From a virus (Duplodnaviria > Caudoviricetes), in IMG/VR virus record IMGVR_UViG_3300018411_000001, positions 1 through 61,870 of that record: 61,870 nt of DNA. One strand, written 5' to 3'. Under the pieces are notes generated by a model. It was not told the origin of the DNA. It saw only the letters and a program-made list of their open reading frames with translations, and did not search any database. Shown piece by piece: positions 1,924 through 38,071 of this stretch (position 1 is the first letter of the stretch; every line of letters starts with the position of its first letter). The translations under genes and the position numbers were made by a program.

Positions 1924-3177
1924 ATGCCTGCACTCACAGATGGCCAAATCAAACGCGCGATGAAGCGGGTGGCCGCCAGCAAAAAGCCCGAAACACTCAC
2001 AGACGGCGAAGGGCGCGGCACCGGCCGTTTGGTGCTGATCCTCAAGCCGCAGCCCACCCGGGTTACCAGCTCCTTCTTTGCCCAGCAGTGGAGCGATGGT
2101 AAGCGCAAGCTCAAGAAGATCGGCGACTACCCCCACATGACCCTGGCAGAAGCACGCGCCGTGTTCGAGCGCGACTTTGCCGCAGCCATCAACAAGGGAT
2201 CCTCCATCAAGGTGCAGGGCGACACCCGCCCCGGTACCGTGGGCGATCTGTTCGAGGCGTACTGCGATGCGCTGGAGGAGGCAGGCAAGAGCAGCCACAA
2301 GGAGGCGCGCAAGGGCTTGGCCAAGATCGCTGATGTGCTGGGGCGTAACCGGCTGGCCCGCGATATCACCCCGGAGGAGGTGCTGGGCGTCATCCGGCCG
2401 ATCTGGGACAGGGGCAAGAAGTCGATGGCGGATCACGTCCGGTCCTACATTCGCAGTGCCTACTCCTGGGGGCTCAAGTCAGAGCTTGATTACCGGTCCA
2501 CCAGCCCGCGTCGGTTCAAGCTGCACAGCAACCCGGCAGCGGACATCCCGACCGAGCCGAAGACCGTTGGCGAGCGCTGGCTGCGCGAGGAGGAGTGGGT
2601 GCAGATGTGGCGGTGGCTTCAAAACCCAGATGTACCGATCCATCCAGCATACCCACGAGCCATCATGCTGCTTATGCTCACAGGTCAAAGGGTTCAGGAG
2701 ATTTGCACTCTGCACAAGGACCAGTACCTGAAAGAGGAGGGAATGCTGGACTGGTCGAAGACGAAAAACGGCAAGCCGCACTCCATCCCCCTGCCCGCCA
2801 TGGCCATCGAACTGCTGGACAGCCTCACCCCCAACGAGCACGGCTGGTACTTCCCTGGTAGCAAGGACCCTTCGCAGTCGGTGCAGCACACCACCCTCTA
2901 TTCGTTCCTCTGGCGGCAGCGGGACCGGGGCGTGGTGCCAGCAGTATCGAACCGGGACATGCGCCGCACTTGGAAGACGCTCGCAGGCAAGGCGGGGCTG
3001 ACGAAGGAGATCCGCGACCGACTGCAGAACCATACCCTGCAGGATGTGTCGAGCAAGAGTTATGACCGCTACAGCTACATCAACGAGAAGCGGGAAGCGA
3101 TGGAGATCTGGGATCGGTTCGTGAGGGACATGATAAAGTTGAAGACACCACCGCGACTGACCGTCGTGGCCGCATAA
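1924..3177 (+). CDS. int: Tyrosine integrase with N-terminal arm-binding domain
   Basis: Arm domain (LTDGEG, KIGDYP..TLAEAR); catalytic TGQR, KTKNG, RDMRRT, LQNH, YDRY. Confidence 0.93.
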   Translation: MPALTDGQIKRAMKRVAASKKPETLTDGEGRGTGRLVLILKPQPTRVTSSFFAQQWSDGKRKLKKIGDYPHMTLAEARAVFERDFAAAINKGSSIKVQGDTRPGTVGDLFEAYCDALEEAGKSSHKEARKGLAKIADVLGRNRLARDITPEEVLGVIRPIWDRGKKSMADHVRSYIRSAYSWGLKSELDYRSTSPRRFKLHSNPAADIPTEPKTVGERWLREEEWVQMWRWLQNPDVPIHPAYPRAIMLLMLTGQRVQEICTLHKDQYLKEEGMLDWSKTKNGKPHSIPLPAMAIELLDSLTPNEHGWYFPGSKDPSQSVQHTTLYSFLWRQRDRGVVPAVSNRDMRRTWKTLAGKAGLTKEIRDRLQNHTLQDVSSKSYDRYSYINEKREAMEIWDRFVRDMIKLKTPPRLTVVAA

Positions 3178-3544: not shown

Positions 3545-4102
3545 TCAGCGCTTGCACTGCTTCACCACTTTTTCTACGTAGTCTTGCAGGGCTGATAGCT
3601 GCGCCTCCTTGCGGATTATTCCTGCCCTGAGATCGAAAACAGCGCGTCCAGCCTCTGGACTAAGCTCGGCGTCCGCTCCATCACCCATGCAGGCGGTGGC
3701 GCTATCTCCGCCTGTGGCGTTCCCACCACTATGGGCAAGCTTGGCGCCGAGGATGCGCAGCCGGCGATTGCCAGAGGCAACATCACGGCTGAGAGTTTCG
3801 TTTTCCATTTCTGCATCTGCAAGTTTCCTCTGGGTTTCGGCATCGAGGCGCGCCAGGTCTTCCTGAGCTGCCTTCATGCGGGCGATGGCTTGTTCGGTGT
3901 CCTGCTGGGCCTTGGTAGTGACGGCCAGCTTCTCCTTGAGCCACCCTTCACGCTCCCTGCCCTGCTCCTCTTTCAAGGTGGCAATGTCTGCCTCGTAGGC
4001 GGTCTTGGTTATCCACCAGGCAGCACCTGCTCCGGCACCGGCCACGAGGGCCACCAGCACCAGGGCGGCGATAGCTTTGAGCTTCCACGACAGCGCATTC
4101 AT
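3545..4102 (-). CDS. Inner-membrane spanin (Rz-like)
   Basis: N-terminal TM helix, coiled coil, C-terminal Cys; last gene of the lysis cassette. Confidence 0.88.
   Translation of the reverse strand: MNALSWKLKAIAALVLVALVAGAGAGAAWWITKTAYEADIATLKEEQGREREGWLKEKLAVTTKAQQDTEQAIARMKAAQEDLARLDAETQRKLADAEMENETLSRDVASGNRRLRILGAKLAHSGGNATGGDSATACMGDGADAELSPEAGRAVFDLRAGIIRKEAQLSALQDYVEKVVKQCKR
3616..3816 (-). CDS. Outer-membrane spanin lipoprotein (Rz1-like), embedded in the i-spanin gene
   Basis: Lipobox IAGC after a basic/hydrophobic leader; Pro-rich (APPPAW); alternative frame inside Rz. Confidence 0.85.
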   Translation of the reverse strand: MQKWKTKLSAVMLPLAIAGCASSAPSLPIVVGTPQAEIAPPPAWVMERTPSLVQRLDALFSISGQE

Positions 4103-4353
4103 GGTCGCGGCCCCCTGAAATGGTCGTTGTAAATCTTCATGATGAAATGCCGCAGCCCTATGAGGGCCACGGCGGTGATGATCATCTGATTTGCTGCAAG
4201 GTAGGTCTGCTGGTGTGCCGCAAAGAACGCCGCGAATGCGGCGATTGCGATTGCTGAATAGAGGGTGCGCCCGACCACGCCATCGTTAACCCGGTCACTC
4301 CAGATGCACCAGGCGGCCCAGCCGAACAACACGGCGTACACGACTGTGATCAT
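4099..4353 (-). CDS. Small 3-TM lysis protein (holin/antiholin)
   Basis: Three hydrophobic segments; overlaps both neighbours by 4 nt. Confidence 0.7.
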   Translation of the reverse strand: MITVVYAVLFGWAAWCIWSDRVNDGVVGRTLYSAIAIAAFAAFFAAHQQTYLAANQMIITAVALIGLRHFIMKIYNDHFRGPRP

Positions 4354-4670
4354 TCTGTACCTCCCCCGAACCGTGCGCGGATGAGCGCCCAGAGGTCGGC
4401 TGCTTCAATTGCCTTGAGGACTGCAGCGATGATAGCGCCGCCAAAGGCTCCGAGCAGGAAGCCAATCCCCCCAGATGACTCAGGATCGATGCTCAGGTAC
4501 ACGCACACCGGCTTTGCCAGGAACTGCGCAGTGATGACGCCAGACATGACAAAAGCCATGACCGAGCGTGCCCCCTTGAGATCCCGCTGAAAAGGCAGCG
4601 CCACCAGGGATCCGAAGAACCCGGCGATTGCCCATTGCAGACTGAAATAAAGCTTTTCAAGCCACTCCAT
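4350..4670 (-). CDS. Holin
   Basis: Three TM segments; directly after the endolysin. Confidence 0.75.
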   Translation of the reverse strand: MEWLEKLYFSLQWAIAGFFGSLVALPFQRDLKGARSVMAFVMSGVITAQFLAKPVCVYLSIDPESSGGIGFLLGAFGGAIIAAVLKAIEAADLWALIRARFGGGTE

Positions 4671-5260
4671 CAGGCACCCCCGAACTGTTTGTAAGCGGCG
4701 GCCAGCTTGGTGTCGTATCTGTTGGTAGCGTAGCCAGGCCCGTTGTAGATGCGGGCGAAGGTGGCCCAGTCACCAGCGCGCAGTGCCTTCACCAGTCGGG
4801 GATCCGCCAGGATGAACCGCACAAAGGTTTCGAGCTGTCCACCAGCCGTGTACTGGTCATTGATGAAGCCCTGCATGGTAGTGTACTGCAGCGTCTTCCA
4901 GTGGTAGCCCATGATCTGAAATGCACCCCAGCTCGCAGACTCCAGCGCGCTGGTGCGGTCGATGAGTTCGGCCGCCCGGTTCATGTCCTTGTCTTCTTTG
5001 TCGAGCGACTGGTAACTGCCTGCCTTCTTCGCCACCAGATCGGGATGAGCCACCAGCTCCTTGTCAGCGCGAGCGCGGTTGAAGTTGCTCGCCAGCTGGC
5101 GGTACATCACATGGGGCTCGTACTGGACCTTGACGCGACCATCAGGAAGGAAGCCACCGCCGTTGCTCTCGACGGTGGCCACCGCCTTGACAGCCGGCAC
5201 GCTCACCCCCAGCCGCTTGGCAGCATCCTGGAAGTCGGTTTCGAGTAACGCACTTTTCAT
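4670..5260 (-). CDS. Endolysin, N-acetylmuramidase (DUF3380 type)
   Basis: AVATVES..G, YEPH, SWGAFQIMG, FARIYNG motifs. Confidence 0.92.
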   Translation of the reverse strand: MKSALLETDFQDAAKRLGVSVPAVKAVATVESNGGGFLPDGRVKVQYEPHVMYRQLASNFNRARADKELVAHPDLVAKKAGSYQSLDKEDKDMNRAAELIDRTSALESASWGAFQIMGYHWKTLQYTTMQGFINDQYTAGGQLETFVRFILADPRLVKALRAGDWATFARIYNGPGYATNRYDTKLAAAYKQFGGA

Positions 5261-5300
5261 TGCATGCTCACCTTGTGGTTTGAGCACACGTCATGCGCGC
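5255..5300 (-). promoter_or_regulatory. Endolysin leader hairpin occluding the RBS, carrying GCGCATGACGTG
   Basis: GTGTGCTCA pairs with TGAGCATGC immediately before the ATG; 12-mer at 5287-5298. Confidence 0.65.
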
Positions 5301-5343
5301 TGATTTGAATGGGGTTCGGCTGGGCTGTGCCAGCAATGCGTTA

Positions 5344-5372
5344 ACGATATAGCTCCGGCGTTGTTGTTTCAA
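5344..5372 (-). promoter_or_regulatory. Sigma70-like promoter for the lysis cassette
   Basis: TTGAAA-17 nt-TATCGT just after a terminator. Confidence 0.6.
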
Positions 5373-5381
5373 CAACAGAGC

Positions 5382-5410
5382 AAAAAGAAACCCGGCACAG
5401 TGGCCGGGCT
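5382..5410 (-). terminator. Intrinsic terminator
   Basis: CCCGGC/GCCGGG stem followed by TTTCTTTTT on the minus strand. Confidence 0.8.
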
Positions 5411-5428
5411 CCATATTGCATCTTGACG

Positions 5429-5734
5429 CTAATCAAACCGGCTGGCGTGGTGCTCTTGGATATACCTGTTGGCCACATCCGCACGCCTTGCCTCGATTTC
5501 CTCAGTTGTCCACAACTCAAAGAACCGCCTGGCCCGCCGTAGCAATGACCTGTATTTCGCGTCCAGCTTAGAGTGCTCATCCTGCAGGTGCTTAATCGCC
5601 TGTACCGGGTCGGTCAGGTCATAGCCGGTGCCGTGGCACAGGTAGCACTCAAACTTCGCTCCATGCAGCAACCCAGGCACAGTGCCAATGCCATCGCAGT
5701 TCGCGCAGGCTGGAGGATTGGCACCGCTGCTCAC
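5429..5734 (-). CDS. Zinc-finger protein (DnaJ-like CxxCxGxG repeats)
   Basis: CANCDGIG and CYLCHGTG motifs. Confidence 0.75.
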   Translation of the reverse strand: MSSGANPPACANCDGIGTVPGLLHGAKFECYLCHGTGYDLTDPVQAIKHLQDEHSKLDAKYRSLLRRARRFFELWTTEEIEARRADVANRYIQEHHASRFD

Positions 5735-6210: not shown

Positions 6211-6513
6211 TTAAACGCCAGCTGGCTGCGCTACTGCGCGCACGAGGGCCATGATGCCGGTCTGAATGTCAGTCTTTCCGATGCTTGCCCAGCGCAGCGG
6301 TTCCGCACTCATGAAGCGATCAAACTCGGCGTAATCCAAGGTATTGGAAGCGGCATTGCTGCTCTTCTCGTCAGCCTGCCCGCGCAGCATGTTATCTAGC
6401 TCATGTTGCAACTCCAGCAGTTCAGCGCCCTTGGCCTTAATGCGATTCATCAGGTCAATCTCTTCCTGGCTCAGTTCACGATAGCCAGCAATCTTGCGAT
6501 GTTGATTCTCCAC
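6211..6513 (-). CDS. acb2: Anti-CBASS protein Acb2 (cyclic oligonucleotide sponge)
   Basis: NQHRKIAGYRELSQEEIDLMN and EPLRWASIGKTDIQTGIMALVRAVAQP match the Acb2/T4 Vs.4 signature. Confidence 0.9.
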   Translation of the reverse strand: MENQHRKIAGYRELSQEEIDLMNRIKAKGAELLELQHELDNMLRGQADEKSSNAASNTLDYAEFDRFMSAEPLRWASIGKTDIQTGIMALVRAVAQPAGV

Positions 6514-6584: not shown

Positions 6585-9500
6585 TTAACGGTAGATCGTG
6601 GGCGCCTGTTCTTCCAGTATCCGATCCCGGAGTTTGCGGTTGTAGCGCATGCCGCCCGTTGCGTTCTCTGCGTTGTCCTCTCGGGTCTTGGCAGAGCGGC
6701 GCAGGGTTTTCGGCGTGATTTCCTGCTCGGGGTACTTGTCGTTGTAGGCGTCGATATCAGCCTCCAGGCTGTCCAGCTTGGCCTCGTCTCCCGCTTCCTC
6801 TGCCTTCCACCAGGAGTCCATCAGCGCCTGACGCTTGCGAACGATGGTCTGTTGCAGGTTGTAGCCGGCGTTGTTGATGTCGTACTGCTCGGCGATCTTC
6901 GCAGGGACAAAACCCAAGGCCTGACGGATGATGTCGAGGGTATCGATATCCTCCACGATGACATCCCCGCGCTTGTTGGTGGCGCCCTCGGTGGAGTAGC
7001 GGAATGCCTTCATCGGGTCCTTGATGGCTTTCGGCATCATGGTTTCGATCCCGCGGTAGACCTGACCCTCTTTCAGCAGGCCATAGCCGCGCACGATGTT
7101 GTCAGCGATGGACGGCGCCGCACCCAACAGCTGGGCTTTCCAGTAGTCGGCCTCGTCCTTGCCTTCGAGCTGCGAGGACGGGGACCGGAACCACAGATCC
7201 CGCATGCCGATAGAGTCGGTCAGGGATGTGCCGGTGGCATAACCCGGCACGCCATCGAGGACGATCCCGGCCATCATCGGGCCAAGGGCCTCGACCATGT
7301 TCTTTTTCAGCTCCACTTCTGGATCCTTGTCGTCATCCATAAAGGCGCTGGCAATCATCAGCATGATGCCAAAGCCCCAGGTGCCGGTGATGCCGGCCGA
7401 CAGCATCATCATGCCGGTGATCCCCGCCAGCTGGATCTTGGCCTCCTTGCGCACCTCTGGCGTGTCGCCCTGGGTGGCCTGGTGGATGTCACGGAACAGG
7501 CGGTACAGCATGTTGATGGAGAAGTTACGGAACACCAGCAGTGCCTTCATGGTGTCGCTGTGCATGATGCGCGGGCGGGAGGTGTTCTGGTAATCGAAGT
7601 GGGTTTTCCACGTCAGATCCCCAGCCTTCTGCACGGCACCGACATGCGGCAAGCCCTTGGCCCTGGCCATGCGGTATGCAGCCAGGAAGGTTACCTCACG
7701 GTTCAGGCGCTCGGTGTGGTGGAAGCCCCACGCCAGCAGCGCCATTATCTTGGTGCGTGCCGGGCTGTACTCGACACCAGTCTCACCAATACCGGCCAAG
7801 TCGTGAGACTGGGTGCGGTCGATGATCCCTATGTCATAGGCCTCTGCCATCGCCTTGCGCTCGTCTGCAGTGAGGCGCTTGCTGTTCTCGGTCTTGCCCT
7901 TGCCCATGGTGAAGTCACCCAGGGCGCGGGTCAGCTGGTTTGCGGCACGGGTCACGCCATTGGCGCCGCCATCGTAGCCGGCCAGGATCGGGATCCCCAT
8001 GATGACGGTCTGCGTCAGGTTGACGATTGCCGCCTTGGGGGAGGCCGCCAGGGCGTAGATGAACGCTGCCTGGGTGATCTTCTGCACCAGTGGGCCACCG
8101 GTCGGGTTCATGATGAACTGGTGGCGTTTCTCCATCTCGTTCACTACCAGGCCGTCGCGCACGGAGTCCTTGCTGGTGTTCGCTTCTTCGCGGGTAGCGT
8201 CGAGCGCTTCCTCCATATCGAAGGAGTGAGCCAGGCGTGCCAGCTGGTGTGATCCGTGGAACATCTGGTTACCGAAGGCGCGCAGGGCGTCAGCGTTGAA
8301 GCCGGCGCGGCCGGTACGGTGGATGCGACCCTTACGGACGGAGAAATCAGGCAGGCTCTCAAGGTAGCGCTGCCACACCTCATCCTTGACGCTTTCAGCA
8401 TTCGGCAGGTCGGCCAGGATGTCCTCCACGTCAGCCACGAAGTTCGGATCCACTGCCTTACGCAGGGAGCCGGTATCGTCCAGGGTGCCCACCTGCACCT
8501 TGTAGTTCTTGTCCTTGCGCATCAGGTCGGCAAATTCTCGCTGTTCACTGGCCTTCTCGAACTTGCTGAACGATTCGACCTTGCCGGTCTGCGCATCACG
8601 CACAGTCACGAACAGGTTGCCGAAGCGCGCAAGCGGGAAGTAAGGCCCCTGCAGGCGGTTCAATTCGAACTGCTGGCGCAGCTGGGTCATGCGGGCCTTG
8701 CGGTTCCAGGCGGTCTTGGTCTTGGCCACACGCAGCTTGTGGTCTGCATCGTCCATCGCCTCGGTACGCTCTTCGCCGGTCAGGCCCTCGTCCTCGATGC
8801 GCTGCAGCTCGTAGCGGTGCTCACGCTCTGCCTTCTTGATACGGACGTTGATCGCCTTCTCCATGTTGGCGAGCAGAACCTTCTCGTAGCCATCGGCCAG
8901 TGAGGTGTATGCGTCACGCACCTCCTTGAAGATCTGGCGCGCTTGCGGGGACAGGCGCTCATATCGGGTGTTGAGGTTTTCCCATGCCTTCTGCTGTTGC
9001 TTGTCCTCGCTGATCTTCTTGAGCAGCTCCTTTTCCTTGTCACTACCCGGTGACGCAAAGCGCAGGGCCTCACGATCCCGGTTGGTGACGATGGATTCAT
9101 GATCCTCTGACGGGTCAACCTGCAAGAGCGTTGCCTCGTGCATGAGGTTCATCATCTCGACGTTCTCGTCCTTGTTGTCCTTGCGGTACTCCAGCCACTT
9201 CTGGGCCACCTCGTCAGTCTTTGCGTGCCAGCGGTTGCGCATGGCATCCATGGACTGCTTGAGGCGCAGGTACTCACTGGCGGCGGGCAGGTTGCGTGCC
9301 ATCTCCTGCACCAGTGGGCGGAACGGGATCAGGGCAAGGCCCTTCTGCATCGCGTCGGTGGTCAGGTCGGACGGGGCATTCTTGGCCTTGTCCCACCACT
9401 GGCGCAGGCGGCTTCTGTCCTGTTCATCGGTGGGGATCTCCGGTGCCGGGTCCATCCCGCTCGGGGAGGTCGGCATATCGGCATAATCGCCGCTCAGATC

Positions 9501-12500
9501 GCGCACTGGCGTATCCGCCAGCGGGTTGGTGGCAAGCATGCGGGTGCTCAGGAAAGAACCGTCGCCCTTGGTGACCGCATCCAGACCCTTGATCACGGCA
9601 GCGGTAGAGGGCAGGCCGAACACGGAGCGGGCTTTCTGGATGAAACCCCGGATCCATTCCTTGGCCCTGGCAGCCCATCCCTGCTGACCATGGCGAGCGG
9701 CCATGATGCTGGCAGCGTTCACAGCCCAGTATTCGCTGGCGTTGGTCAGCTGGTAGTGCTGGTCGTAATCCAGCAGGCCAGACTCGAATGCCTTCATCGT
9801 GGCGTCACGGGCAGCCTTATTGCCGAATGCAGACAGGCGCAGGGCATCGAGCGCTGCACGTTGCTCCGGGGTAGCCTTCTTGTAAGCGTTCGCCCATGCC
9901 TTGTTGTACTCGGCCGCGATCCCCTTCTGCACGCCTGGCGGCATCATGCGCTCAGTGTGGTGCAGGATCTCGTGGATAGGAGCTGTGTCACGCATCCCCT
10001 CGGTCATCAGCTTGGCGATGCGCTCGGCGCGGTCGTAGCTGGAGCCACCTTTGCTGGAGATGCTGAAACCCAGATCCTCGGCAAGCTGCGGGTTGCGGTT
10101 CAGCGCCCAGATGGCGATGTCTGCTGCCTGCTCGCTGATCTCCCCGCGGCGGCGTGCGCGGTGCAGGCGCTCCAGCACCATGTCAGCACCACGTTGGCGC
10201 TCGGCAGTGGCGCGCTGGAATGCGTTCTCGCGTGACCTCTCCTCCAGCCAGCTGGCAAGCTCGCCCAACTGGTCGGAATACTGCTCCGGTGTCAGCTGCT
10301 CTTTCTGCTGCTCAAGCTTGCGCAGGCGGGCCGCCAGCTGGATACGGTTACCCTCCGGCAGGCGGCTGTACTGGGTATCCATGGCTAGGTCGTTGAAGAT
10401 ATTTGGCTTGTAATGGTCAAATGAACCTGAATTTCCGGTTGCTGATTTTATATTGACAGCATCAAATACTACATATCCTGTCTGATCGCGCCACTCTTTA
10501 TCTCCATGCTGCTTGATGATCAAACCATCAATTCCGGCCATATTATCTAAGTAAGCACTAGAGTCCCCCCAGTGAGGGTTTGCTTTGTGCGCCTTTGCTG
10601 CCGCCCCCCGCGATGGCTGTGATTCTTTCCAATCTAGGCGCAGCTCGGTGAATGTTTCGTAAGGGTTCGGGGTAATCATCCTAACGTATGCAGGCATCAC
10701 CTTTTCACCATAGTCTGCCGCTCGCTCCTTGCTCGAAGTAAACCATGACCCAATAGAATCGAGACCATCCTGCCCCCTGTGAGCAGGTTTCCGATCAAAC
10801 GCATCAAACTCCTTATATGTGCCGTGATACACAACCAGCGGCCTACCGCGCTCATCTACCACCTTGCTGTCACCGAACCAGCGCCAGAAGTTGCGGATCC
10901 CTTCCTCTGTTGGATGAATAGGCTTGCCATTGCTGTTAGTAGTCGGTCGCGACTTGCCGTCCACCTCGATGGTACTGATGGTCAGGTCGTTGAGTTGCGG
11001 CTCTGCTTCATCCGTTGCCGGTTTGGCAACAGCCTGCTCATCAGTTTTCTTTTTCGGGCGCAGCTGCTCGATCACCTCGCCATGGCGGGCGGTTGCTTCT
11101 TTCAGCTGCTCCTCCTTCTGCCATGGCTTGACCTGGGCCTGCAGGGCCGGGATCGCCTCTTGCGCCTTGGTGAGGGCGTCTTCCATCTTCTCGATGGCTG
11201 CCGGCAGGTCGCGCACGGAGTTGGTCAGGCGTACTGACAGGCCGGCCGGGTCTGCACCCACCTCCACTTTGGTGGAATAGGTGCCGGTACCGGACACCTC
11301 CAGTGCGTAGGTCTCTGCGTACAGCTTCTCCAGGGTCAGCTTGAAGCCGCCATAGGTGCCGATCTGACGCATTTCCTCGCCGGTCTGCTCCATCTGCAGA
11401 GTCTGCTGCAGGATCGCCTCGCCAGCATCCTTGCGCTTGTCGAAGGTCTGCCCGTCAATGGTGACCTCAAACTTGGCAGGCTGGGCCAGCTTGTCGTCAG
11501 CGCGCAAGCTTACCAGCTGGCGGTTGATGATCTTGACGTTGCCCTGCTCCATGCCGATCCGGTCACGGATGCGGAACTGGTCGCGGTCATGTGCGGTGCG
11601 CTCGTTCTCTAGGGTGCGGATACGCTGGCGCAGGGACATCTCTTCCAGGATGAGCGGGTTGCCACTGGATGCCGCTTTCATTTCTGCAGCGTTGGCAGCC
11701 TCGCCGGCCACGTCCTCGATCTCCCGGGTGCTGGTATCGCCCTTGCGCACCTGCTCGATAAAGGTGGCCTTGCCCTCGATGGTCTGCCACATGCGGCTGT
11801 CCAGGGTCTGCTTGGTGGCGTAGCGGTAGATCCCTACCTCGAACCCTTCCGGGTCGCGGTCATAGAGCTTGTTACCCTGACGGATGATCCGCCCCTCGCG
11901 CTGCTCCAGGTCAGACGGGCGCCATGGGGCGTCCAGGTGATGCAGGGCCACCAGCCGCTCTTGCACGTTCATGCCGGCGCCCATCTTGGCGGTAGAGCCG
12001 AACAGCACACGCACACGGCCGGTACGGACTTTCGCAAACAGATCAGTCTTTTGAAGGTCTGTCTTCGCGTCGTGGATGAAGGCGATCTCTTCTGCGGGGA
12101 TCCCACGCTCCACCAGCTTCTGCTTGAGGTCGTCATAGACAGAGAAGGCCGATTTGAGCGCGTCAATATCGTCCGGGCTCATCTTGTCCAGCTCTGCCTG
12201 TGCGGGATCCGCAACGGCAGGGTCATTGCTCTCGGCTCTCTCTATCAGGTCGCGCAGGTGCGCAGCCTCATCAGCACGAGCGCCCTTCGGCGTGGACAGG
12301 TCGATAAATACCAGCTGTGCGCCCTTGTCGTCGTGCCAGCGGTCGTAATCCTCCTTGATGTTGTTGGCAGCGAAATTGACCTTGCTGTCAGGGTTGTCCG
12401 GGTAATCAGGGTCGATCAGGCGCATATCCAGCGCGGCCTTGCGGGCGTCGGACATGATCTTGAGCATGTTGTCACCGCCCTTCTCTGCTTTCTTGGGAAG

Positions 12501-15500
12501 GTTCTCGGCGCGGTGAACCAGCGATCCGGACGGGAACTCGTCGGTGTCGTTACCCTCGGCATCCTTGACCGGCTCACCGATATAGGAGGCTTGCCACTGG
12601 GAGCGCTCAACAACCACGTTCTGCGGCTTGCCGCCTTTCACCTTCGGCACCGGCAGGCGCTTGCCCTGTGATGCGAGCATGCGGTTTATGTCGTCGCGGT
12701 TGATGACGTCAGCGAAAGCAGTGTAGCGCTGCATCAGCTCAGGCATGTTCACGAACTTGGCGAACCGGCTATTGAGCTTGTACTGGCCAGACGGGGACAG
12801 CTCCCAGTCGGTGACGACTTCGCCAAACATGCGCGCCCAGGCGTCGAAGTGCGACAGCCCGGACTGCTTGAGGTTGTCGTAATCCAGATAGCGCTGCATG
12901 GTATACATCTCGGCCATGGTGTTGCTGATCGGCGTGCCGGTCGCGAACACCACATTACGGCCCCCGGTCGCTTTGCGCACGACGCGGGTTTTCATGTAGA
13001 GGTCCGTTGATTTCTGGCTGCCGCTGGAGCTGCCAAGGCCTGCGACGTTGCGCATGCCGGTGCTGTAGGCCAGGTTCTTGAACTCGTGTGCCTCATCGAG
13101 GAACAGCGCATCAATCCCCAGGTCATCCCAGTACAGACTGTCATCCTTGTTGCCGGTGTCGAGCAGGGCTTTCAGCTTCTCTTCCATCTTGGTGCGGCGC
13201 TCGGCTGCCTGCTTCACGTTGCGGGACTTCTTGCCCTCGGCGGCCTCAATGGCATCGATAGAGCTGGTCAGATCCGCGATCTCTTCCCGGATGAACTCGG
13301 CTTCTGTCTCCGGCTTCATGCCGACCTTGCCGAATGAGGAATGAGCCACGATCACCGCGTCCCAGTCACCAGTGGCAATGCGCGCAAAGAAGCGCTTGCG
13401 GTTGGCCTTCTCAAAGTCGCGTTTGGTCGCGGCCAGGACGTTGGCGCCCGGGTACAGCTTGATGAAGTCCTTGGACCACTCACCTACGAGGTGGTTGGGG
13501 ACAACGAACATCGGCTTACGGGACAGCCCCAGGCGGCGCAGTTCCATGGCTGCGGCCACCAGCGTGAAGGTCTTACCGGCACCGACTACGTGATCGGCCA
13601 GGGTGCTGCCACCCTGCACGATGCGCCACACCGCGTTGCCTTGGTGCGGACGCAGCCTGATGATGTCGTCGGATATCTTGCCCGGGAATGTCAGGTGTGA
13701 CCCGTCATACTCCCGGCGCACGTCGGTGTTGAACAGGTCGTTATAGAGTCGGCTCAGTGAGCTGCGGCGGGCGTCATCACTCCAGATCCAGCGATCCCAC
13801 TCTTCCTTGACGGCTTTCACCTTGTCATTGGCGAGCTGGGTTTCGGTTTCATTCAGGGTGCGCGTGCCGTCGCGGCTCTCATCATAGACCTGCACCGCCT
13901 TCTGGGCGGCAGCGGCCTCGATGATCTGGCCGACGCTCATGCGGCTGGTACCAAAGCGCGCAGTAGCAGAGCTGGTGGCCTCCAGTTTCGGGAATGACCA
14001 GTTGGCATTGAGCGGGTTATAGAAAGCCTTGTTGCCGGCCTTCTCGGTGAGGTGATCGGCAAAGGCGGACATGGTGTCGGCCGGGATCCAGGTCGCCCCC
14101 GGCTTGACGTTGATATCTACCGCCTCGATATCCTTTGGCTGAACGGCGCGCAGGGCTTCGACGTTGCGGCCATAGGCCTGGCTGGTCTTGGCAGCCTCCT
14201 CGGCTCGTGCCAGCTTGCGCTTGACGTTGCCGGAGAGGTAATGATCGCGGGTCTGCCAGCCGGCATCCGGATCGCTGAACAGCAGATCGCCAAGCTCCTC
14301 GGCAATCTGCTCCTCGGGTTTGCCGTATAGCTGCACCATCATGTCCATATCGACACGGCCACGCTCGGCCAGGGTTGCAACCAGTGCATCCTTGGCAGTG
14401 TTGGCGCTGGTGGGCGCAGAGTACGGTTGCTGGGTGCGCTTGGTGAAGATGGCAGCTTTCACAGCAGACTGCGGGCGGGCCTCTTCGCCGGTGGTCTTGG
14501 CCACGGCAGCGGATACGCCGCGATCATAGCTGTCTTCCAGTGCGGATATCTGCGGCCAGGTCGGGTCATCACGGAACAACAGCTTGTTGGCCTGGCTGTT
14601 GATGGGGCCGTTGCTCTTCACGAAACCGTCATAGGTCTTGTTCAGGCGTACACGGGCCTCCTCGAGGGCGGCCTCACTGGCGGTGTTGGACAGCTGCAGC
14701 TGGCGCAGGCGTGAGAGGTTGTCGCGCAAGCGCAGCATCCCCTTCACGCGCTCCTCGGCCTTGGCGGAACGGAACTCCACCGCCTCGCCGGTGCGCTCGC
14801 CCATCACGTCCTCACCCCTGACCATGACACGGCCATCGCCGCTGATGAACATGGCGCCCACACGGGTGTTTTCAGCCTGCACAGTCTCGCGGGTTTCAGG
14901 TTTGACGGTTACCGCGGCCTGCATGATGCCGGCCGGCAGACGGTTGATAGCAGCGTCCAGCAACTGCAGGGTGTTCTGACCCTCACGGGCCACCAGCGCA
15001 GAGTCACCGGCACGGTACATTGTGCCGAAGGCGCCGAACTCACCCAGCATGTTGTCCGGGTTGGCCATGAAGTATTCATTGAGCGGCACGGTTGCGCCGT
15101 TCTTGTCGGTGAAATCGACGCTGTTCATCCAGCTGGTACCGCTGGGCTTCTGACCCGGGGCGCGGCGCTGCAGGATGATGATGTCGGTCGTTACCTCAGT
15201 GCCGGCATTCTTCGCAAAGGCGCTGTTCGGCAGGCGGATAGCCGCCACCAGATCGGCGCGCTCGGCGATGTACTGGCGGGCCTTGTCGCTGTTGCCGTCG
15301 AGGAACCGGTTGGTTACCACCATGGCCAGCACGCCACCAGGGCGCAGGGCATCGACAGAGCGGGCAAAAAAGTAGTTGTGAATGCTGAATCCTGACAGGT
15401 CCTTGCGGTTGCCGTCGTACAGCTTCTCAGACCCAAAGGGCGGATTGCCCACGGCCACGTCAAAGTAACCGTCCGGGATTGCGTACTCCTGGTACCCCAT

Positions 15501-18500
15501 GCGGGCAATCTTGGCGTCAGGGTAGAGCGCAGTAGCAATGCCAGAGGTGATGCGGTCAAGCTCCACCCCATGCAGGGCAGACGATCCGCGGGCATCCTGC
15601 GGCATAAGGCCAAAGAAGTTACCCACGCCAACTGACGGCTCGATCACGCGGCCACCGGTGAAGCCAAGGCGACCCAGCGCCTTCCACATCCCGTTGACGA
15701 TCTCCGGGCTGGTGTAGTGCGCGTTGCGGGTTGAGGCGGCAGCGGCTGCATACTCCTCTGGGGTCAGCAGGGATTTCAGCTCTGCAACCTGCTTCTCCCA
15801 GCCCTTATTGGCAGTGCCATCAGTGCGCTCGAAAGCGGCCGGTATCCCACCCCACCCTACATACTTGGACAGTGCTGCCTGGTCTGCTGCGGTAACGGCC
15901 CGGCCAGTCTCCTCCAGATCCTTGAGAACACGGATGGCTGCCACGTTGTTGGCGTACTTGGTCTTGTCGCCACCCTGCCCGATCTCCTCGGCATTGATGG
16001 TGAACAGATCGGCCGGCCGGTCTTGAGAGATTACTCCGGCTGCGGGTAGTACGGATCTTCCAGCGGCATCCCCATCACGGCTTGCAGGGCGGCCCCGCTC
16101 TGCTCTGGCCCTTCCTGCTGACTCTGCTCCTCTGGCGGAAACAGGTAGCTCTCCCGTGTCATCTCCCAGGCTTCGTGCTCGGTCATTCCCTGCTGCTCCA
16201 GTTCGTCCATCTCCCTGGCCGTCTGCTGCGCTGCCTGCTGCAGGGCTGCGTCCAGCTTCCCGGACTTCTGCAGCTGCGCGTACAGGCTTGGCCGGTGCTC
16301 CTGCCAGTGCAGGCGAGCTTGACTCACCCAGTTCTGTAGCTGTGCCATTGCGTTCTACCTCTGCGTCAAATTCTGCGACCATCGCATCGAGGCCGCTGGT
16401 GGGTCGGGGTCCAAGTTCATCGGAGGGCCGCTCGGTAGTGGATACCATAGGGGTCGGCTGTTCAACAGGCTGCTTGTTCAGCTTGGCCAGCTCTGCGCGC
16501 ACTGCTTCCGGGCTATCCATGCCATCGATGCTGACATTGCTGTCTTCCATCATATCCCTGGCGCCGTTGTACCAGCTGCGCAGGTAAGGGCGCAGGCGGG
16601 CAAGCGGCATATCCAGATCGGCGGCCATAGCCTTGGCGAAGTCGGAGAACTTGCGGGCGCTGGCTTCAATGTGGAACACGGCAAGCTCGGTACCGATGGC
16701 CAGGATTTCCGGGTCGATACCGCTGTTTAGCTGGGCAAACTTCGCTTTAAGCTTCTGGCGCAGCTCTGCGGCTCGGTCCTGCGACACTAGCTTGTTGTTG
16801 GCGCCGTACTCTGCTTGCTGGCTGGCCTCGGCTTGGACCGGTGCCGTAACTGTTTCTCCGCTTACGCTTTGGGCTGGAAGAACAGATGTTTGGTTCAACT
16901 CTTCAGGGGTGCTTGCAGGTTCAGACTGGGCAGCCACAATCGCCTGCATCACGCCTGCGCGGTCGCTTTCGCTTTTCAGTCCGTTCTTGACGTTGGCGGT
17001 CCACTTCTTCTTCATCGGGTGATCGTCAGGTACCAGCTCAAGCGCGCCCGTGGCCTGCTCGCGCCAACCCCCCTGATTGGCTGGCTTGCCGGAAAGATCA
17101 ATCACCTTGGCTGGCGTGTTGCGCACGCTCTCGCCAGCACTGTTCGCCCAGTAGTCAGCAAGGGGGTCGTCGGTCTTAATTGGGGACTTTGACCCAGCCT
17201 TGTTTTCCCCTTGTTGCGCCGCATGCTCGGCTGTTGCCGTTTCAGCAACAGGCTGGGCACCAACTTTCGACCATTCGACACGACGGGACTTGCCCACCTC
17301 CAGATCCGGCATGCTGACGGTAGCAGTCTCGCCGGTTTCCTGGTTGGTGAGGTAGGTGGTGCCGTTCTTCTCGATCCGGTCTACGGTGTAACGCGCACCA
17401 GGCTGGAGCCCACCGACTTCACCAGACGGTGACACGGTTTGACCTACCTCGCCCACCAGCTTCTTGACCCGATTGACGCGGGGATTGCTCGCCGCCTTCT
17501 TGGGTGCTGCCGGCTTGGGCACCTCTGCAGTGGATGCGCGCAGCTCAAAGCGTCCTGGCTGTACCTCTTGCGGGGCGTAGCCGGTGAGGCCCTTCTTCTC
17601 GATGTGGGCTGCTGCCTTCTCTGCGGTGCTGAACCACTTCGGTTTGCCATCGGCACCGAGCACGGTGTCAGCCTGCTGGGCTGGCTGCTCTTCAACTACT
17701 GGCGCCTTGGCTGCCTGCACCTGGGCATCGAGCACGCGCTCAACCTTGCGGCGCTCATCAGAGAGGCGCTTATCCCAGCCGCCATTGGTCTTGGCCTGAC
17801 GAGCCAGATAGCGCATGCGGTCACGCAGCTCACCTTCATCCATCTGTTCCAGTGACTTCTGAGCGGGGGCTTCTTCCTTGACGGCCGGTTGCGCCGGTGA
17901 ACTGTCAAGGATTTCTCCAGTGTTCGGGTCTACACCCTGCTCTTGCAGGGCCTGCTCGATAGCGGACTGGCGCTCCTGGGTCTGCTGCTCCTCGACCTGG
18001 GCGCGTTCTGCCTTCACCTCTTCCGGGGTGCCTGCATCCTGCATCTGCTGATCGGTGGTGACCTGCGGGGCGGCAGCGGCTGTGATGTCCACTTCGTCAG
18101 GGCTGACAGTGTACGGGGTGCCATCTTCGCCACGAACGGTAACACCGCCGTCGCTTTCGTAGCGCTCAACAGTGGCCACCAGTGCAGACTGGGGATCGCC
18201 CTTGGCCTGCATCTGGATAGTGGCGCCAGGCTCACCGGCCCAGAAATTGCCATTGGCGGCATCAGGTTGCTGGGCAGTGCCGCGGGCAGCACGCTCAAGC
18301 GGGCCAGCATCGTCTGACAGCCCGGTATCATCCCGGCTCGGCGTGGGGGCGGCGGCAACCGCCTCCTCCATAGCAGCCTGTTGCGGGTCTACCTGTGCGG
18401 CTTCTTGTGCGGGAGGGATATCTGCTGCCGGGCCTTGGCCAGCTCGGGGGGCAGCTGCACCCATGCCGGCACCCATGATGCCGCCGACCGCAAGGCCACC

Positions 18501-22121: not shown

Positions 22122-22861
22122 TCACCCCCGCACTCGATGTTGAACTGGGCGATCAGCAGAGAGGTATTGTCACGGATGATGTCCAGGCGCCGCTGGTACT
22201 CGTCATGCGCCTCGGGATAGCAGGCCTTGAGGAACGGGGCACGGTTGTCGCTCCACCAGCCGGAGCAGGTCATGCAATCTGGCTGGCTCTTTACGTAGTC
22301 GTAGCAGCGGTTGCGAGGGGCGCCGACTTGCTCAAGCCAGCCGTTCACGTCCTCATCTGTCCAGCTCTCAATGGGGAACAGGTACTGAATACCAAGCTCC
22401 CAGCCCTCAGACTTGACCGGCGCCTTGTGGCTGTCGTCTTCACGCTGGCCACGGATAATTAGGGTGATGCCGTCAGCCAGCATGCGCTCGTGCATTGGCT
22501 GCATGATCACCCGCCCACAGCAGGAGTAGGAATCCTGCATGCGGATCTCAGCCTGACCACACATCAAGCCAATGGGGGTACAGCTGCGGGGGAGGATGTC
22601 CGTGGGGATCCCGAACTGGGCGATGACCTCCGGCTGGTTGCCGGCGATCTCGGTGAAGTAAGGCGACATCTCGCGCACCTGCTCCATGATGGCCCGCGTT
22701 TCGGGGAAAGCGGCACCGGTGTTGACCCAGTACACCATCACCTTGTCGAGCAGGCCCGCATCCTTGAGCAGGTACCAGCAAGCGAGCGAGTCACGCCCAC
22801 CAGACACCTGCAACCCAATGCGCTCGTGCGCACCCATGATCCTCATCAGTTGTTCTTTCAT
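22118..22861 (-). CDS. Second PAPS-reductase-like (PP-loop) protein
   Basis: SGGRDS, VNTG..FPET, SCC, IRGQR, PDCMTC; TGATG coupling to the upstream gene. Confidence 0.85.
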   Translation of the reverse strand: MKEQLMRIMGAHERIGLQVSGGRDSLACWYLLKDAGLLDKVMVYWVNTGAAFPETRAIMEQVREMSPYFTEIAGNQPEVIAQFGIPTDILPRSCTPIGLMCGQAEIRMQDSYSCCGRVIMQPMHERMLADGITLIIRGQREDDSHKAPVKSEGWELGIQYLFPIESWTDEDVNGWLEQVGAPRNRCYDYVKSQPDCMTCSGWWSDNRAPFLKACYPEAHDEYQRRLDIIRDNTSLLIAQFNIECGGE

Positions 22862-37776: not shown

Positions 37777-37831
37777 AGTGCTTGTCCTCAAACGTGCGGG
37801 TTGTCATTGACCGCACGTCATGCGCAGCACT
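37777..37831 (-). promoter_or_regulatory. Capsid leader structure enclosing the RBS, carrying GCGCATGACGTG
   Basis: AGTGCT/AGCACT and ACGTGCGG/CCGCACGT stems flank SD GAGGA; 12-mer at 37814-37825. Confidence 0.65.
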
Positions 37832-37844
37832 TTCAAACGTTGTG

Positions 37845-37873
37845 ATTATCAATCCAGTGTTGTCGAATTGCAA
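37845..37873 (-). promoter_or_regulatory. Sigma70-like promoter for the capsid genes
   Basis: TTGCAA-17 nt-GATAAT. Confidence 0.65.
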
Positions 37874-37888
37874 ACACTGCATCCGTGA

Positions 37889-38071
37889 CTAAACAGCCTC
37901 TTGCGGGGCTTGCCCCTCCTTTTCCTTCCGTTGTGACTTGGGAGTCCTTACCACTACATCATCCGGCGCGTCGATGATCAGCGAGCAAACCTGCCCTGAT
38001 TTGTGCACCATCTTGATTTTTACACCGCCGATCCAGAGGTCTTCACCCAGCTTGAGGTCATGTTTAATCAC
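37889..38071 (-). CDS. Divergent CsrA/RsmA-like RNA-binding protein
   Basis: LKLGEDLWIGGVKIKMV.KSG.VCSLIIDAPDDVVV parallels CsrA R..GE.L.IGD.V.V.VL..G.QVRIG..AP..V.V; SD AGGAG. Confidence 0.75.
   Translation of the reverse strand: MIKHDLKLGEDLWIGGVKIKMVHKSGQVCSLIIDAPDDVVVRTPKSQRKEKEGQAPQEAV

Follow-up and report, generated by a model that had tools for sequence, protein, structure and literature searches.

A conserved hairpin over the ribosome-binding site in podophage late-gene leaders, a candidate target of phage CsrA-like proteins

The leader of the endolysin gene in the window (the whole 61,870-nucleotide stretch of phage DNA analysed here) carries a short sequence box whose 3′ half belongs to a hairpin closing the ribosome-binding site (RBS), and the same arrangement recurs, with covariation in the closing helix, before capsid and lysis genes of related phages, many of which also carry a gene of the CsrA family. 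The leader may thus be one copy of a conserved cis-regulatory RNA of podophages such as Bcep22, PEp14 and H66, with the phage CsrA-like protein working it as a switch of translation, a reading to which we give roughly even chances. An earlier note on this DNA had proposed that a hairpin locks endolysin translation and is a second target of a phage CsrA switch, an interpretation that is partly supported as a whole. Comparison with relatives, rather than the window sequence alone, indicates that the hairpin is real and, even without the link to the protein, the element has good support as a new cis-regulatory RNA motif in the leaders of phage late genes. The features of the lysis region are as follows.

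3545-4102: Rz (PF03245, E 2.7e-21)
3616-3843: Rz1-like open reading frame embedded in Rz
4350-4670 and 4099-4353: small membrane proteins after the endolysin
4670..5260, minus strand: endolysin (N-acetylmuramidase; PF11860, E 1.5e-52), first gene of the lysis cassette
5262..5272, minus strand: 3′ arm of helix P1, UGAGCAUGC (5270-5262), with GG 5272-5271 of the inner ACC/GGU helix
5267..5274, minus strand: Shine–Dalgarno (SD) sequence AAGGUGAG of the endolysin (minimum free energy (MFE) fold; mean P(unpaired) 0.27)
5281..5289, minus strand: 5′ arm of the RBS-closing helix P1, GUGUGCUCA, the same in all related contigs compared
5286..5298, minus strand: box GCGC-AUGAC-GUGU, which includes the 12-mer singled out by the earlier note
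5319..5334, minus strand: 5′-proximal leader hairpin GCUGG/CCAGC (MFE fold)
5344..5376, minus strand: sigma70-like promoter of the lysis cassette, TTGAAA-17-TATCGT (5372-5344), by sequence pattern
5387..5412, minus strand: intrinsic-terminator-like hairpin with U-run closing the upstream operon (10 pairs, 7 of them G-C, then TTTTTG)

The gene order of the cassette matches lys-hol-Rz/Rz1 of PEp14. As proposed earlier, the cassette has a promoter of its own; a terminator lies upstream. An inverted repeat (GTTGTTG/CAACAAC) spans the -35 element, and relatives show TTGTGG...TATAAT at the promoter position. The terminator at 5387..5412 is conserved in L003 and L004 and occupies the same place in L014, L023 and L025; a terminator scan of the endolysin leader region returned this hairpin (5412-5387) and 5535-5522 only. 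The RBS-closing hairpin itself has no U-run of an intrinsic terminator or attenuator, being followed by A-AUG-AAAAG. The 5′-proximal hairpin has a counterpart, GCUGGC/GCCAGC, in L003 and L004, and its region (5319..5334) is rich in indels among near relatives.

On the minus strand, the 5′ end of the endolysin mRNA reads GCGCAUGAC-GUGUGCUCA-AACCACAAGG-UGAGCAUGC-A-AUG, with the AUG at 5260-5258. The stem pairs 5289-5281 with 5270-5262 around a core of six Watson–Crick pairs (TGCTCA/TGAGCA, with 10 nt between them), to which the mRNA strand alone adds G-C, U.G and G.U. The ViennaRNA fold of the stem has 8 pairs and, beyond a 2-nt bulge, another 3 inner pairs (ACC/GGU), and it ends 1 nt short of the AUG; the first A of AAGGUGAG is unpaired and the rest of the SD is paired. 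Hairpin, SD, start codon and 12-mer all sit where the earlier note had placed them, and its claim that the hairpin closes the RBS agrees with a predicted opening cost of 10.3 kcal/mol in the full leader. The 3′ arm of P1 is unchanged in related contigs, and a C>A change at 5277 (mRNA sense) disrupts one inner pair in two contigs. Taken alone, the window hairpin is marginal (z -1.39; 17 of 200 shuffles equal or better), and with box and AUG held fixed in the shuffles z is -1.9 (4 of 100 equally good). No Rfam covariance model matched the window at its gathering score, with sub-threshold noise only around both leaders. When the lysis region was compared by blastn with 50,697 phage records, nothing matched over the endolysin leader at the DNA level; the best match, PEp14, begins inside the coding region.

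The 12-mer (5287-5298, minus strand) shares 3 nt with the 5′ arm of the stem. It has exactly two exact copies in the window and, as the earlier note had it, is common to the endolysin and capsid leaders, the second copy (37814-37825, minus strand) lying 37 nt upstream of the capsid AUG; the reversed 12-mer has no match in the window. Copies with one mismatch at 22199 and 57586 lie within or antisense to open reading frames and look like chance. The capsid region contributes three further features.

37777..37831, minus strand: capsid leader structure
37813..37825, minus strand: second box of the window, GCGC-AUGAC-GUGC, in the capsid leader
37889..38071, minus strand: 60-residue CsrA-family protein with a GTG start, the candidate trans-acting factor

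In the capsid leader, an outer helix AGUGCU/AGCACU (37831-37826 with 37782-37777), which stops at the AUG and has the counterpart AGCGCU/AGCGC in L086-L088, encloses a local hairpin ACGUGCGG/CCGCACGU (37818-37811 with 37799-37792); the SD, GAGGA, is at 37789-37785.

The evidence that carries the element comes from a set of 95 leaders, 81 of capsid and 14 of endolysin genes, window included. The box, GCGC-A-N-G-A-(N)-GUGC, is found in 93 of them, its 3′ half pairing with the bases immediately before the AUG or including it. The 12-mer of the earlier note is not conserved letter by letter, since two of its 12 bases are different in the nearest relatives, but the pattern GCGC-ANGA(N)-GUG(C/U) is. 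Across 35 whole records the box matches 74 times, with few exceptions on the coding strand, and the reversed control 4 times. The MFE structure joins at least five box-arm bases to the last 22 nt in 57 of 68 non-redundant leaders (84% showing P1-type pairing, compared with 22% of shuffles that keep box and AUG), and with the same constraint the mean z of these leaders is -3.4, 53 of them falling below -2. Two positions of the box vary, N and X, and both covary with their partners (N: U-A 17, G-C 21, G.U 5; X: C-G 23, U-A 6, G-C 4, A-U 3). The energy of pairing between arm and tail is -11.05 for cognate partners and -8.14 ± 0.28 for permuted ones, and none of 2,000 permutations was as low. The recurrence of box and P1 across relatives is therefore far beyond chance. 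The box lies 26 to 50 nt upstream of the AUG in the window and most relatives; its distance from the -10 element ranges from 14 to 47 nt.

RNAalifold yielded only 4 pairs on a raw MAFFT alignment of 24 leaders, a consequence of the 3′ arms being out of register there. A covariance model, R1, built from 11 distant leaders and too narrow, recovered leaders outside its seed among 100 loci of relatives (for example L166 at 2.4e-6 and L113 at 1.3e-4), together with palindromic reverse-strand matches, on account of which alignment A7 was set aside. Run on the window, it reached only 15.6 bits (E 0.028) at the capsid leader and missed the endolysin leader, which ranked 8 of 46 with 9.6 bits (E 1.2); R1 thus lends the window no support.

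The box precedes 12 homologous endolysins and, in other relatives, three non-homologous endolysins or amidases and two holins; the motif is thus present in lysis leaders of relatives, at 12 homologous and 5 non-homologous lysis genes, and its absence from them, which the earlier note had named as evidence against its reading, is not what was found. Elsewhere among the relatives, boxes stand before genes for internal and giant virion proteins, with up to five per genome, on one strand. PEp14 has its boxes exactly before the capsid and lys genes, DC1 has a box GCGC-AGGAG-GUGC after its CsrA-like gene and, in H66, the AGGAG of one box itself serves as the SD of gp51. Box matches inside open reading frames (L169-L172, L174, and DC1 46734 in a DarB-like gene) look like coding coincidence.

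The protein encoded at 37889..38071 belongs to the CsrA family, as the earlier note had supposed. On its own it matches Pfam CsrA (PF02599) with 22.5 bits (E 1.1e-4), under the curated cut-off of 27, while of 30 family members 26 reach E ≤ 0.01, the best of them 9.7e-13. The family profile A1 finds RsmE (2jpp, 7e-14) and CsrA (1y00, 2.8e-11) in the PDB over residues 1-48, a profile-level homology that covers the whole RNA-binding fold of the solved CsrA and RsmE structures. The RsmE–RNA entries 2jpp and 2mf0 are among the profile matches listed. A csrA homologue is present in the three genera checked by name, Lessievirus (DC1), Pavtokvirus (PEp14) and Hollowayvirus (H66), where RefSeq labels the gene 'CsrA-like regulator'. 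Of 81 capsid loci, 61 have a syntenic CsrA-like open reading frame upstream of the leader. Among the whole records, 31 of 35 contain the gene and the 4 without it also have no leader box, a co-occurrence confounded by shared ancestry. Capsid homology had guided the choice of the 31 gene-positive records, whereas the 4 negatives entered through endolysin homology alone.

CsrA proteins need GGA, displayed in the loop of a short hairpin with the consensus A(N)GGA(N), and R44 is a key RNA-contact residue of CsrA. The window protein has R43-T44 in place of R44, and its subclade likewise has no R or K there. R or K is found at this position in 28 of 46 family members, 26 of the 28 with GGA loops. 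Loop type and residue 44 are concordant in 43 of 46 cases, but these reduce to 4 and 2 changes on the capsid tree and only three independent pairs, which gives their co-evolution no statistical support.

Folded on itself, the box forms a mini-hairpin, P0, which shows AGGA, AUGAC or AUGGAA in its loop and resembles a CsrA/RsmE site. The GCGC/GUGC arms, the A after GCGC and the G and A of the loop stay constant where P1 by itself would tolerate any complementary pair, and the arm variants that do occur (GGGC/GUCC, GCGU/GUGC, GCAC/GUGC and GCGC/GUGU) all still pair. One clade has the exact hexaloop form GGGC-AUGGAA-GUCC, and a 6-bp hairpin with P0 only, GGGCGC-AAGA-GUGCCC, lies downstream of the csrA-like gene in G017 and G018. 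GGA loops occur in 40 of 82 boxes matched by scan, about half of the family; near relatives have AGGA, AGGAG or AGGAA in their endolysin boxes, and both window leaders, endolysin and capsid, have AUGAC, with no GGA in the loop. The P0 of the window endolysin leader consists of C-G, G.U, C-G and G.U pairs, extendable to 7 bp (AGCGCGC/GUGUGCU). The box lies 14 nt from the endolysin SD, which has GGU, not GGA.

Formation of P0 is predicted to ease access to the RBS across the family, where the median opening cost is 11.3 kcal/mol in the free leader and 4.6 kcal/mol with P0 formed; 44 of 66 leaders gain 5 kcal/mol or more. The earlier suggestion that the stem-loop GCGC-AUGAC-GUGU would free the RBS holds only in part for the window. 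In the full endolysin leader the predicted opening cost falls to 6.2 kcal/mol, but the SD remains unpaired with a probability of only about 0.3, since the 12-mer does not include the inner GCUC..ACC/GGU..GAGC pairs. In a truncated RNA context P0 brings this leader no gain (7.6 to 8.0 kcal/mol), and the two window leaders belong to a group of 11, out of 66, in which the cost in that context shifts by less than 1 kcal/mol.

The switch that we propose would rest on two mutually exclusive folds of the leader. In the closed fold, P1, the 3′ half of the box (GA-N-GUGC and the following bases) would pair with the region from SD to AUG and hinder ribosome entry; in the other, P0, GCGC would pair with GUGC within the box and show A-N-G-A-(N) in a loop of 4 to 6 nt. 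Binding of the phage CsrA-family protein (37889-38071) to the box would then couple capsid and lysis translation to the level of this protein. The likelier direction is activation, in which the protein would hold P0 and free the RBS, in the manner of CsrA at E. coli ymdA; repression, with the protein bridging box and SD, is less likely. The leader hairpin is the best candidate target yet for phage CsrA-like proteins. A wider claim, which we hold more tentatively and at somewhat under even chances, is that these proteins are dedicated regulators of a phage late regulon, acting through a box that competes with an RBS-closing helix, and that the loop variation (GGA, UGA, AGA) reflects co-evolved specificity. 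Translation of capsid, lysis, internal-virion and giant proteins would then be licensed only after the portal-scaffold-csrA operon has been expressed.

The most serious alternative, doubtful but deserving weight at perhaps one chance in four, is that the leader works with no protein at all, its hairpin tuning or delaying translation or stabilizing the 5′ end of the mRNA and the box being conserved for dual pairing or structure. P1 is strongly supported without invoking any protein, a self-contained hairpin fully accounts for what is seen in the single window, and there P0 changes RBS access little and the loop has no GGA. However, a helix alone would allow covariation at the G and A of the loop and at the unpaired A that follows GCGC, bases that do not vary, and hairpins with P0 only, as well as a box that is itself the SD, occur where no helix closes the RBS. 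Moreover, this explanation would place a lock of median 11 kcal/mol on the major capsid gene, and so strong a lock on a product made in bulk calls for a release mechanism.

Less probable, though still worth entertaining, is that another factor reads the box hairpin, which would then be either a nut/boxB-like site for a processive antiterminator that loads close behind late promoters or the site of a different phage RNA-binding protein such as the zinc-finger protein at 5429-5734. Boxes lie shortly downstream of sigma70-like promoters at the heads of long late operons, at most five per genome. The boxB of lambda and P22 is a short G+C stem with a purine-rich loop of 4 to 5 nt, which the box hairpin may be said to recall. 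Against such a site, the sequence pairing with the box on its 3′ side touches or takes in the start codon at every gene, which points to translation; alignments A2-A6 contain no boxA-like second conserved block beside the box, and the distance from the -10 element is variable. Action of host CsrA/RsmA on the leaders, with the phage protein perturbing host regulation, is improbable: the GGA loops of about half of the family are classical host CsrA sites, but UGA and AGA loops should be poor ligands of host CsrA, and the window's own loop would be among these expected poor binders. Box and phage gene are, in addition, adjacent and co-inherited. The phage gene is treated as a moron or host-manipulation gene in the available text of PMC9144972 and PMC11879866, yet the box is found in DC1, whose host Burkholderia cepacia is reported to have no chromosomal csrA (available text of PMC7366521). 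That an ordinary weak hairpin happens to adjoin a coincidental 12-mer repeat is very improbable. It would fit the single-sequence z of only -1.4, the two random-looking one-mismatch copies and a rough, uncomputed estimate that 12-mer repeats are common somewhere in 62 kb, but hardly the presence of box and architecture in 93 of 95 leaders with covariation and 74 matches against 4 in the control.

The proposed switch has parallels in several known systems. Canonical CsrA/RsmE repression works through GGA hairpins overlapping the SD (glgC, hcnA), and CsrA/RsmA targets have two or more sites, one of them overlapping the SD. The box resembles these in its short hairpin displaying A(N)GGA, in the GGGC-AUGGAA-GUCC clade and in the H66 box that is an SD, but it is mostly the partner of the RBS rather than the RBS, and many of its loops have a single G. 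Phage Mu Com, a zinc-finger protein, activates translation of mom, its one target, through a leader hairpin; the systems are alike in a small phage-encoded protein, a candidate one here, opening a late-gene leader structure that conceals the start signals, and differ in that the candidate has a CsrA fold and 2 to 5 targets per genome. In the FliW-CsrA-flagellin partner switch, CsrA controls translation of an abundant structural protein, and the candidate CsrA here would similarly be dedicated to one such protein whose gene is nearby. Closest in mechanism is the system described in 2020 (available text of PMC7492729), in which a CsrA-family protein binds upstream leader sites and destabilizes an SD-sequestering hairpin, after which the ribosome binds. 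Such a hairpin in the 5′ leader is common to both, as would be the favoured mechanism; in contrast, the candidate site here, a fixed box of 12 to 14 nt, doubles as the 5′ arm of the lock, its loop is ANGA(N), often without GGA, and a phage-encoded candidate regulator would act on phage late genes.

The literature searched, which left out Gill et al. 2011 (Bcep22), contained no description of the element, and in full-text articles five box strings matched nothing but unrelated primers. The csrA 'morons' annotated in Lessievirus, Pavtokvirus and Hollowayvirus belong to the same gene family and occupy the same place, between scaffold-side genes and the major capsid gene. In their available portions, PMC9144972, which uses the term moron, and PMC7366521 propose host manipulation or leave the role open and do not mention a cis element or phage targets; PMC7366521 calls for loss-of-function work, and PMC11879866 describes the role of phage csrA in the phage life cycle as untested. 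With a covarying leader beside the csrA-like gene and repeated at capsid and lysis genes, that role becomes directly testable. If the link to the protein is true, the leaders would constitute a new structured RNA family read by a CsrA variant of altered specificity, and together they would form a post-transcriptional timer of capsid synthesis and lysis. The only hint of contact between CsrA and a capsid in the available text of PMC9144972 is a single CsrA peptide in JC1 virions.

The endolysin gene of the complete, 61,870-bp window record, which has terminal repeats, lies on the minus strand, as do the majority of the window genes, and heads a lysis cassette in which it is followed by two small membrane proteins and then by Rz (PF03245) with an embedded Rz1-like ORF, a lysis gene order (lys-hol-Rz/Rz1) identical to that of PEp14. 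Its leader, ~77 nt long, lies downstream of a promoter-like sequence and contains the box, a conserved motif of the form GCGC-ANGA(N)-GUGC that includes a 12-mer common to the endolysin and capsid leaders.

Features of the endolysin leader region, with the candidate trans-acting factor
4670-5260, minus strand: endolysin (Pfam Muramidase PF11860, E 1.5e-52), first gene of the lysis cassette
5260-5258: endolysin AUG
5274-5267: endolysin SD, AAGGUGAG
5289-5281 with 5270-5262: leader stem, GUGUGCUCA with UGAGCAUGC
5298-5287: 12-mer GCGCAUGACGUG in the endolysin leader
5319-5334, minus strand: extra hairpin GCUGG/CCAGC, 5'-proximal in the predicted leader fold
5372-5344: promoter-like TTGAAA-17-TATCGT upstream of the endolysin, with a perfect inverted repeat GTTGTTG/CAACAAC over the -35
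5412-5387: terminator-like hairpin upstream of the endolysin promoter
37889-38071, minus strand: CsrA-like ORF, 60 aa, GTG start, flanked by the scaffold-side gene and the capsid promoter

The sequence agrees with the arrangement of 12-mer, stem, SD and AUG described in the earlier note. Just six pairs of the stem are complementary at the DNA level; a U.G and a G.U pair, possible on the mRNA strand only, extend it, and the predicted fold comprises eight pairs, an AA bulge and three inner pairs (ACC/GGU), leaves the SD unpaired at its first A only and stops 1 nt short of the AUG. The assertion that the capsid leader carries the same 12-mer also holds, the only other exact copy in the window being located there (37825-37814, minus strand); two copies with one mismatch were discounted, as they lie inside or antisense to ORFs. 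The 71-nt fold of the endolysin leader has a z-score of -1.39, with 17 of 200 shuffles folding equally well, and when box and AUG are held fixed the z-score is -1.9, with 4 of 100 shuffles equally stable. From the window sequence alone the hairpin is hardly beyond chance, and the case rests on relatives.

Relatives were sampled from IMG/VR at 80 loci with an endolysin homologue and 80 with a capsid homologue. The endolysin is a mosaic gene, and its upstream regions are unrelated in most of the 80 endolysin loci; the leader architecture is common to 13 of them (the box being degenerate in one, L006) and is present in nearly all capsid loci. A box of the form G[C/G][G/A][C/U]-loop containing GA-G[U/C][C/G]C occurs in 93 of 95 leaders, window included, the two leaders lacking it being L117 and L006. 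The commonest versions among 82 boxes, counted before dereplication, are GCGC-AGGA-GUGC (17), GCGC-AUGAC-GUGC (16) and GCGC-AAGAC-GUGC (14). Across 35 whole records the pattern GCGCANGAN{0,1}GTGC gives 74 matches, nearly all on the coding strand and at most 5 or 6 per genome, versus 4 for the reversed control. In near-relative contigs aligned to the window, the endolysin box loop reads AUGAC, AGGAG, AGGA or AGGAA; neither the arms of the box nor the two hairpin arms change, even though the flanks show as many as 35 differences in 301 letters. In two contigs one inner pair is lost, at 5277. The 5319-5334 hairpin has a counterpart, GCUGGC/GCCAGC, in the relatives L003 and L004, and this stretch is indel-rich among near relatives.

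The closing helix, named here P1, pairs the 3' half of the box with the region from SD to AUG. In 57 of 68 non-redundant leaders, the minimum free energy structure joins the final 22 nt, which include the start codon, to at least five bases of the box 3' half. When the middle of these leaders was dinucleotide-shuffled with box and AUG kept, arm-to-RBS pairing was found in 22% of shuffles versus 84% observed; z-scores against the shuffles have a mean of -3.4 and a median of -3.7, and 53 of 68 fall below -2. Box position N covaries with its partner (U-A 17, G-C 21, G.U 5), as does position X (C-G 23, U-A 6, G-C 4, A-U 3), and in AUGAC-class leaders the partner of the U is the start-codon A itself (CAUGACGU...ACGUCAUG). 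The arm-tail duplex energy is -11.05 kcal/mol for cognate partners versus -8.14 +/- 0.28 for permuted ones, and the cognate energy is attained in none of 2000 permutations. Taken together, the leader folds, shuffles, covariation and permutations identify P1 as a conserved, covarying RNA structure, of which the window endolysin hairpin is a local version in a slightly different register.

Every alignment keeps GCGC, GUGC, the A that follows GCGC, and G and A in the loop unchanged. P1 alone would permit paired positions to change in step. The box can itself form a mini-hairpin, P0, in which GCGC pairs with GUGC (G-C, C-G, G.U, C-G) around a loop A-N-G-A-(N) of 4 to 6 nt. Pairing is kept in all arm variants, namely GGGC/GUCC (5, both sides changed), GCAC/GUGC (2, G.U to A-U), GCGU/GUGC (4) and GCGC/GUGU (5), a result of little independent weight because the scan accepted only boxes able to form four P0 pairs. 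The GGGC clade has a loop AUGGAA or AUGGAU closed by C-G, which is the textbook hexaloop of a CsrA/RsmE site. Two whole records, G017 and G018, contain a P0-only hairpin extended to 6 bp, GGGCGC-AAGA-GUGCCC (L184 ~311-380 and L183 ~389-460, respectively). It is separated by ~45 nt from the csrA-like stop codon upstream and precedes a tRNA-like sequence recognised by eye; candidate roles are those of a decoy, of autoregulation or of a terminator-like element.

P0 and P1 are mutually exclusive because the GUGC strand is common to both. Across the family, opening a 16-nt RBS window is predicted to cost a median of 11.3 kcal/mol, and 4.6 kcal/mol once P0 is imposed; of 66 leaders, 44 show a drop of at least 5 kcal/mol and 11 a drop below 1. 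In the 107-nt endolysin leader of the window, P0 costs 4.1 kcal/mol to impose and lengthens spontaneously to 7 bp (AGCGCGC/GUGUGCU). The proposal in the earlier note that the box stem-loop frees the RBS stands in part: in the full leader the opening cost falls from 10.3 to 6.2 kcal/mol (9.5 when the 12-mer is merely kept single-stranded), but the SD keeps a mean unpaired probability of 0.27-0.30, remaining mostly paired through GCUC..ACC/GGU..GAGC outside the box, and truncating the context abolishes the gain (7.6 to 8.0 kcal/mol). The window capsid leader holds its box in a local hairpin, ACGUGCGG/CCGCACGU, nested within an outer AGUGCU/AGCACU helix ending at the AUG, and P0 reduces RBS opening from 10.0 to 8.0 kcal/mol. 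On these predicted energies the RBS lock is real yet moderate in the window phage. The full-length endolysin fold also pairs AGCGCGCA of the box region (5258-5300) with endolysin codons 3-5 (GUGCGUU, 5236-5250), and L003 and L004 show comparable pairing with different codons (AAUGCGCU).

Capsid and endolysin are the only window genes with a box leader, and PEp14 has it at the same two genes, capsid and lys. From other relatives 20 further box sites were taken, 14 of which lie 15 to 60 nt ahead of a gene start, mostly with a fold of the P1 type; capsid genes follow three of these 14. The remaining six are inside ORFs or unclear, and one DC1 box match is inside an ORF. PHROGs assignments for ten of the 14 box-led genes are holin (2), endolysin or amidase (3), internal virion protein (2), giant virion protein (2, of which one is DarB-like and one matches a 'virion RNA polymerase' family only weakly, at E 1.3e-10) and unknown (1). 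The box site of L181, also among the 14, precedes a giant-protein-like ORF recognised by eye. The earlier note named absence of the motif from the lysis leaders of relatives as a refuting outcome; the result is favourable, the motif being present at the first gene of five lysis cassettes. The PHROG families of these genes differ from each other, and we infer that these genes are non-homologous to the window endolysin. A 4542-aa window ORF (6585-20213, minus strand), the counterpart of the DarB-like giant virion protein of Lessieviruses, starts 9 nt after the upstream gene and has no leader; in some relatives (L166, L177, L181) this giant gene is preceded by a box leader of its own.

The candidate trans-acting factor is the CsrA-like ORF near the capsid leader. 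Alone, the window protein scores 22.5 bits versus a Pfam CsrA cut-off of 27; 26 of 30 relatives match CsrA, and the family profile matches RsmE (2jpp, 7e-14) and CsrA (1y00, 2.8e-11) over residues 1-48. RefSeq already labels homologues in PEp14, Pavtok, Itty13, LASTA, H66 and others 'CsrA-like regulator'. Of 81 capsid loci, 61 have a homologue no more than 2.5 kb upstream of the capsid gene, and flanks are short in several of the remaining 20; the gene is present in 31 of 35 whole records; the four records lacking it, chosen by endolysin similarity only, have no leader box apart from one stray match in one. This co-occurrence is confounded by common descent. In the Lessievirus DC1, CsrA-like gp46 is followed by a promoter, a box GCGC-AGGAG-GUGC and the major head gene, and a survey reports chromosomal csrA to be absent from its host, Burkholderia cepacia (PMC7366521). 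Of 46 cases, 43 are concordant for a GGA loop and R/K at the position of CsrA R44, an association without statistical support, with only 4 and 2 changes on the capsid tree and 3 independent pairs; the window protein has R43-T44 and the window loops are UGA, not GGA.

The window observation is confirmed, and it belongs to a well-supported, apparently undescribed leader RNA family. Neither the window nor the leaders gave an Rfam match for the element, and literature searches on phage-encoded CsrA, on CsrA-like proteins with phage and capsid, and on five box strings turned up no described cis target. The JC1 study regards the phage gene as a moron and detected a single CsrA peptide in virions (PMC9144972); the CRISPRi-ART work finds the csrA homologue of phage PTXU04 semi-essential, its authors stating that a phage life-cycle role of csrA had not been tested (PMC11879866); and the Pseudomonas survey counts 30 csrA-positive phages and calls for loss-of-function tests (PMC7366521).

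A putative link to the phage CsrA-like protein, which would bind the box, is the best available explanation of the leaders, and we give this link roughly even chances; it is directly testable. Activation is favoured, the protein acting as a would-be key to the RBS lock, since a major capsid gene locked by ~11 kcal/mol calls for a means of release and since CsrA is known to activate ymdA by melting a hairpin that sequesters its SD (PMC7492729). A CsrA-like dimer bridging box and SD would instead repress, and the gp51 site of the Hollowayvirus H66 resembles a repression site. H66 has three boxes, GCGCAGGAGUGC, on the coding strand: box 1 (1629-1640 of L192, the H66 locus), 38 nt upstream of gp50 and within the 3' end of the csrA-like gene; box 2 (2083-2094 of L192), whose AGGAG is the SD of gp51, 6 nt before the gp51 AUG; and box 3, 26 nt upstream of gp55. 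Those in the csrA-like gene and at the gp51 SD would act as classical repression sites.

Both box-leader promoters of the window have inverted repeats over the -35, GTTGTTG/CAACAAC (5360-5376) and ATCCAGTGTT/AACACTGCAT (37852-37882), and relatives have GTTTGC..GCAAAC or GGTTGC..CAACC at the same promoter position; a late transcription factor may bind at these repeats. The product of the final gene ahead of the terminator preceding the endolysin promoter (5429-5734, minus strand; 101 aa) carries two CxxCxGxG motifs of the DnaJ zinc-finger type and gives a weak, sub-cut-off Pfam match to Anti-TRAP (E 2.9e-4). A 417-aa integrase-like ORF, judged by eye, adjoins the lysis cassette (1924-3177, plus strand); given this ORF and the classification of several relatives as proviruses, a temperate lifestyle is probable. 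A 100-aa protein encoded between the lysis cassette and the gene for the giant virion protein (6211-6513, minus strand) has an Acb2/Tad1 hairpin domain (PF24729, E 1.1e-18) and resembles a cyclic-nucleotide sponge of the anti-CBASS/anti-Thoeris type.
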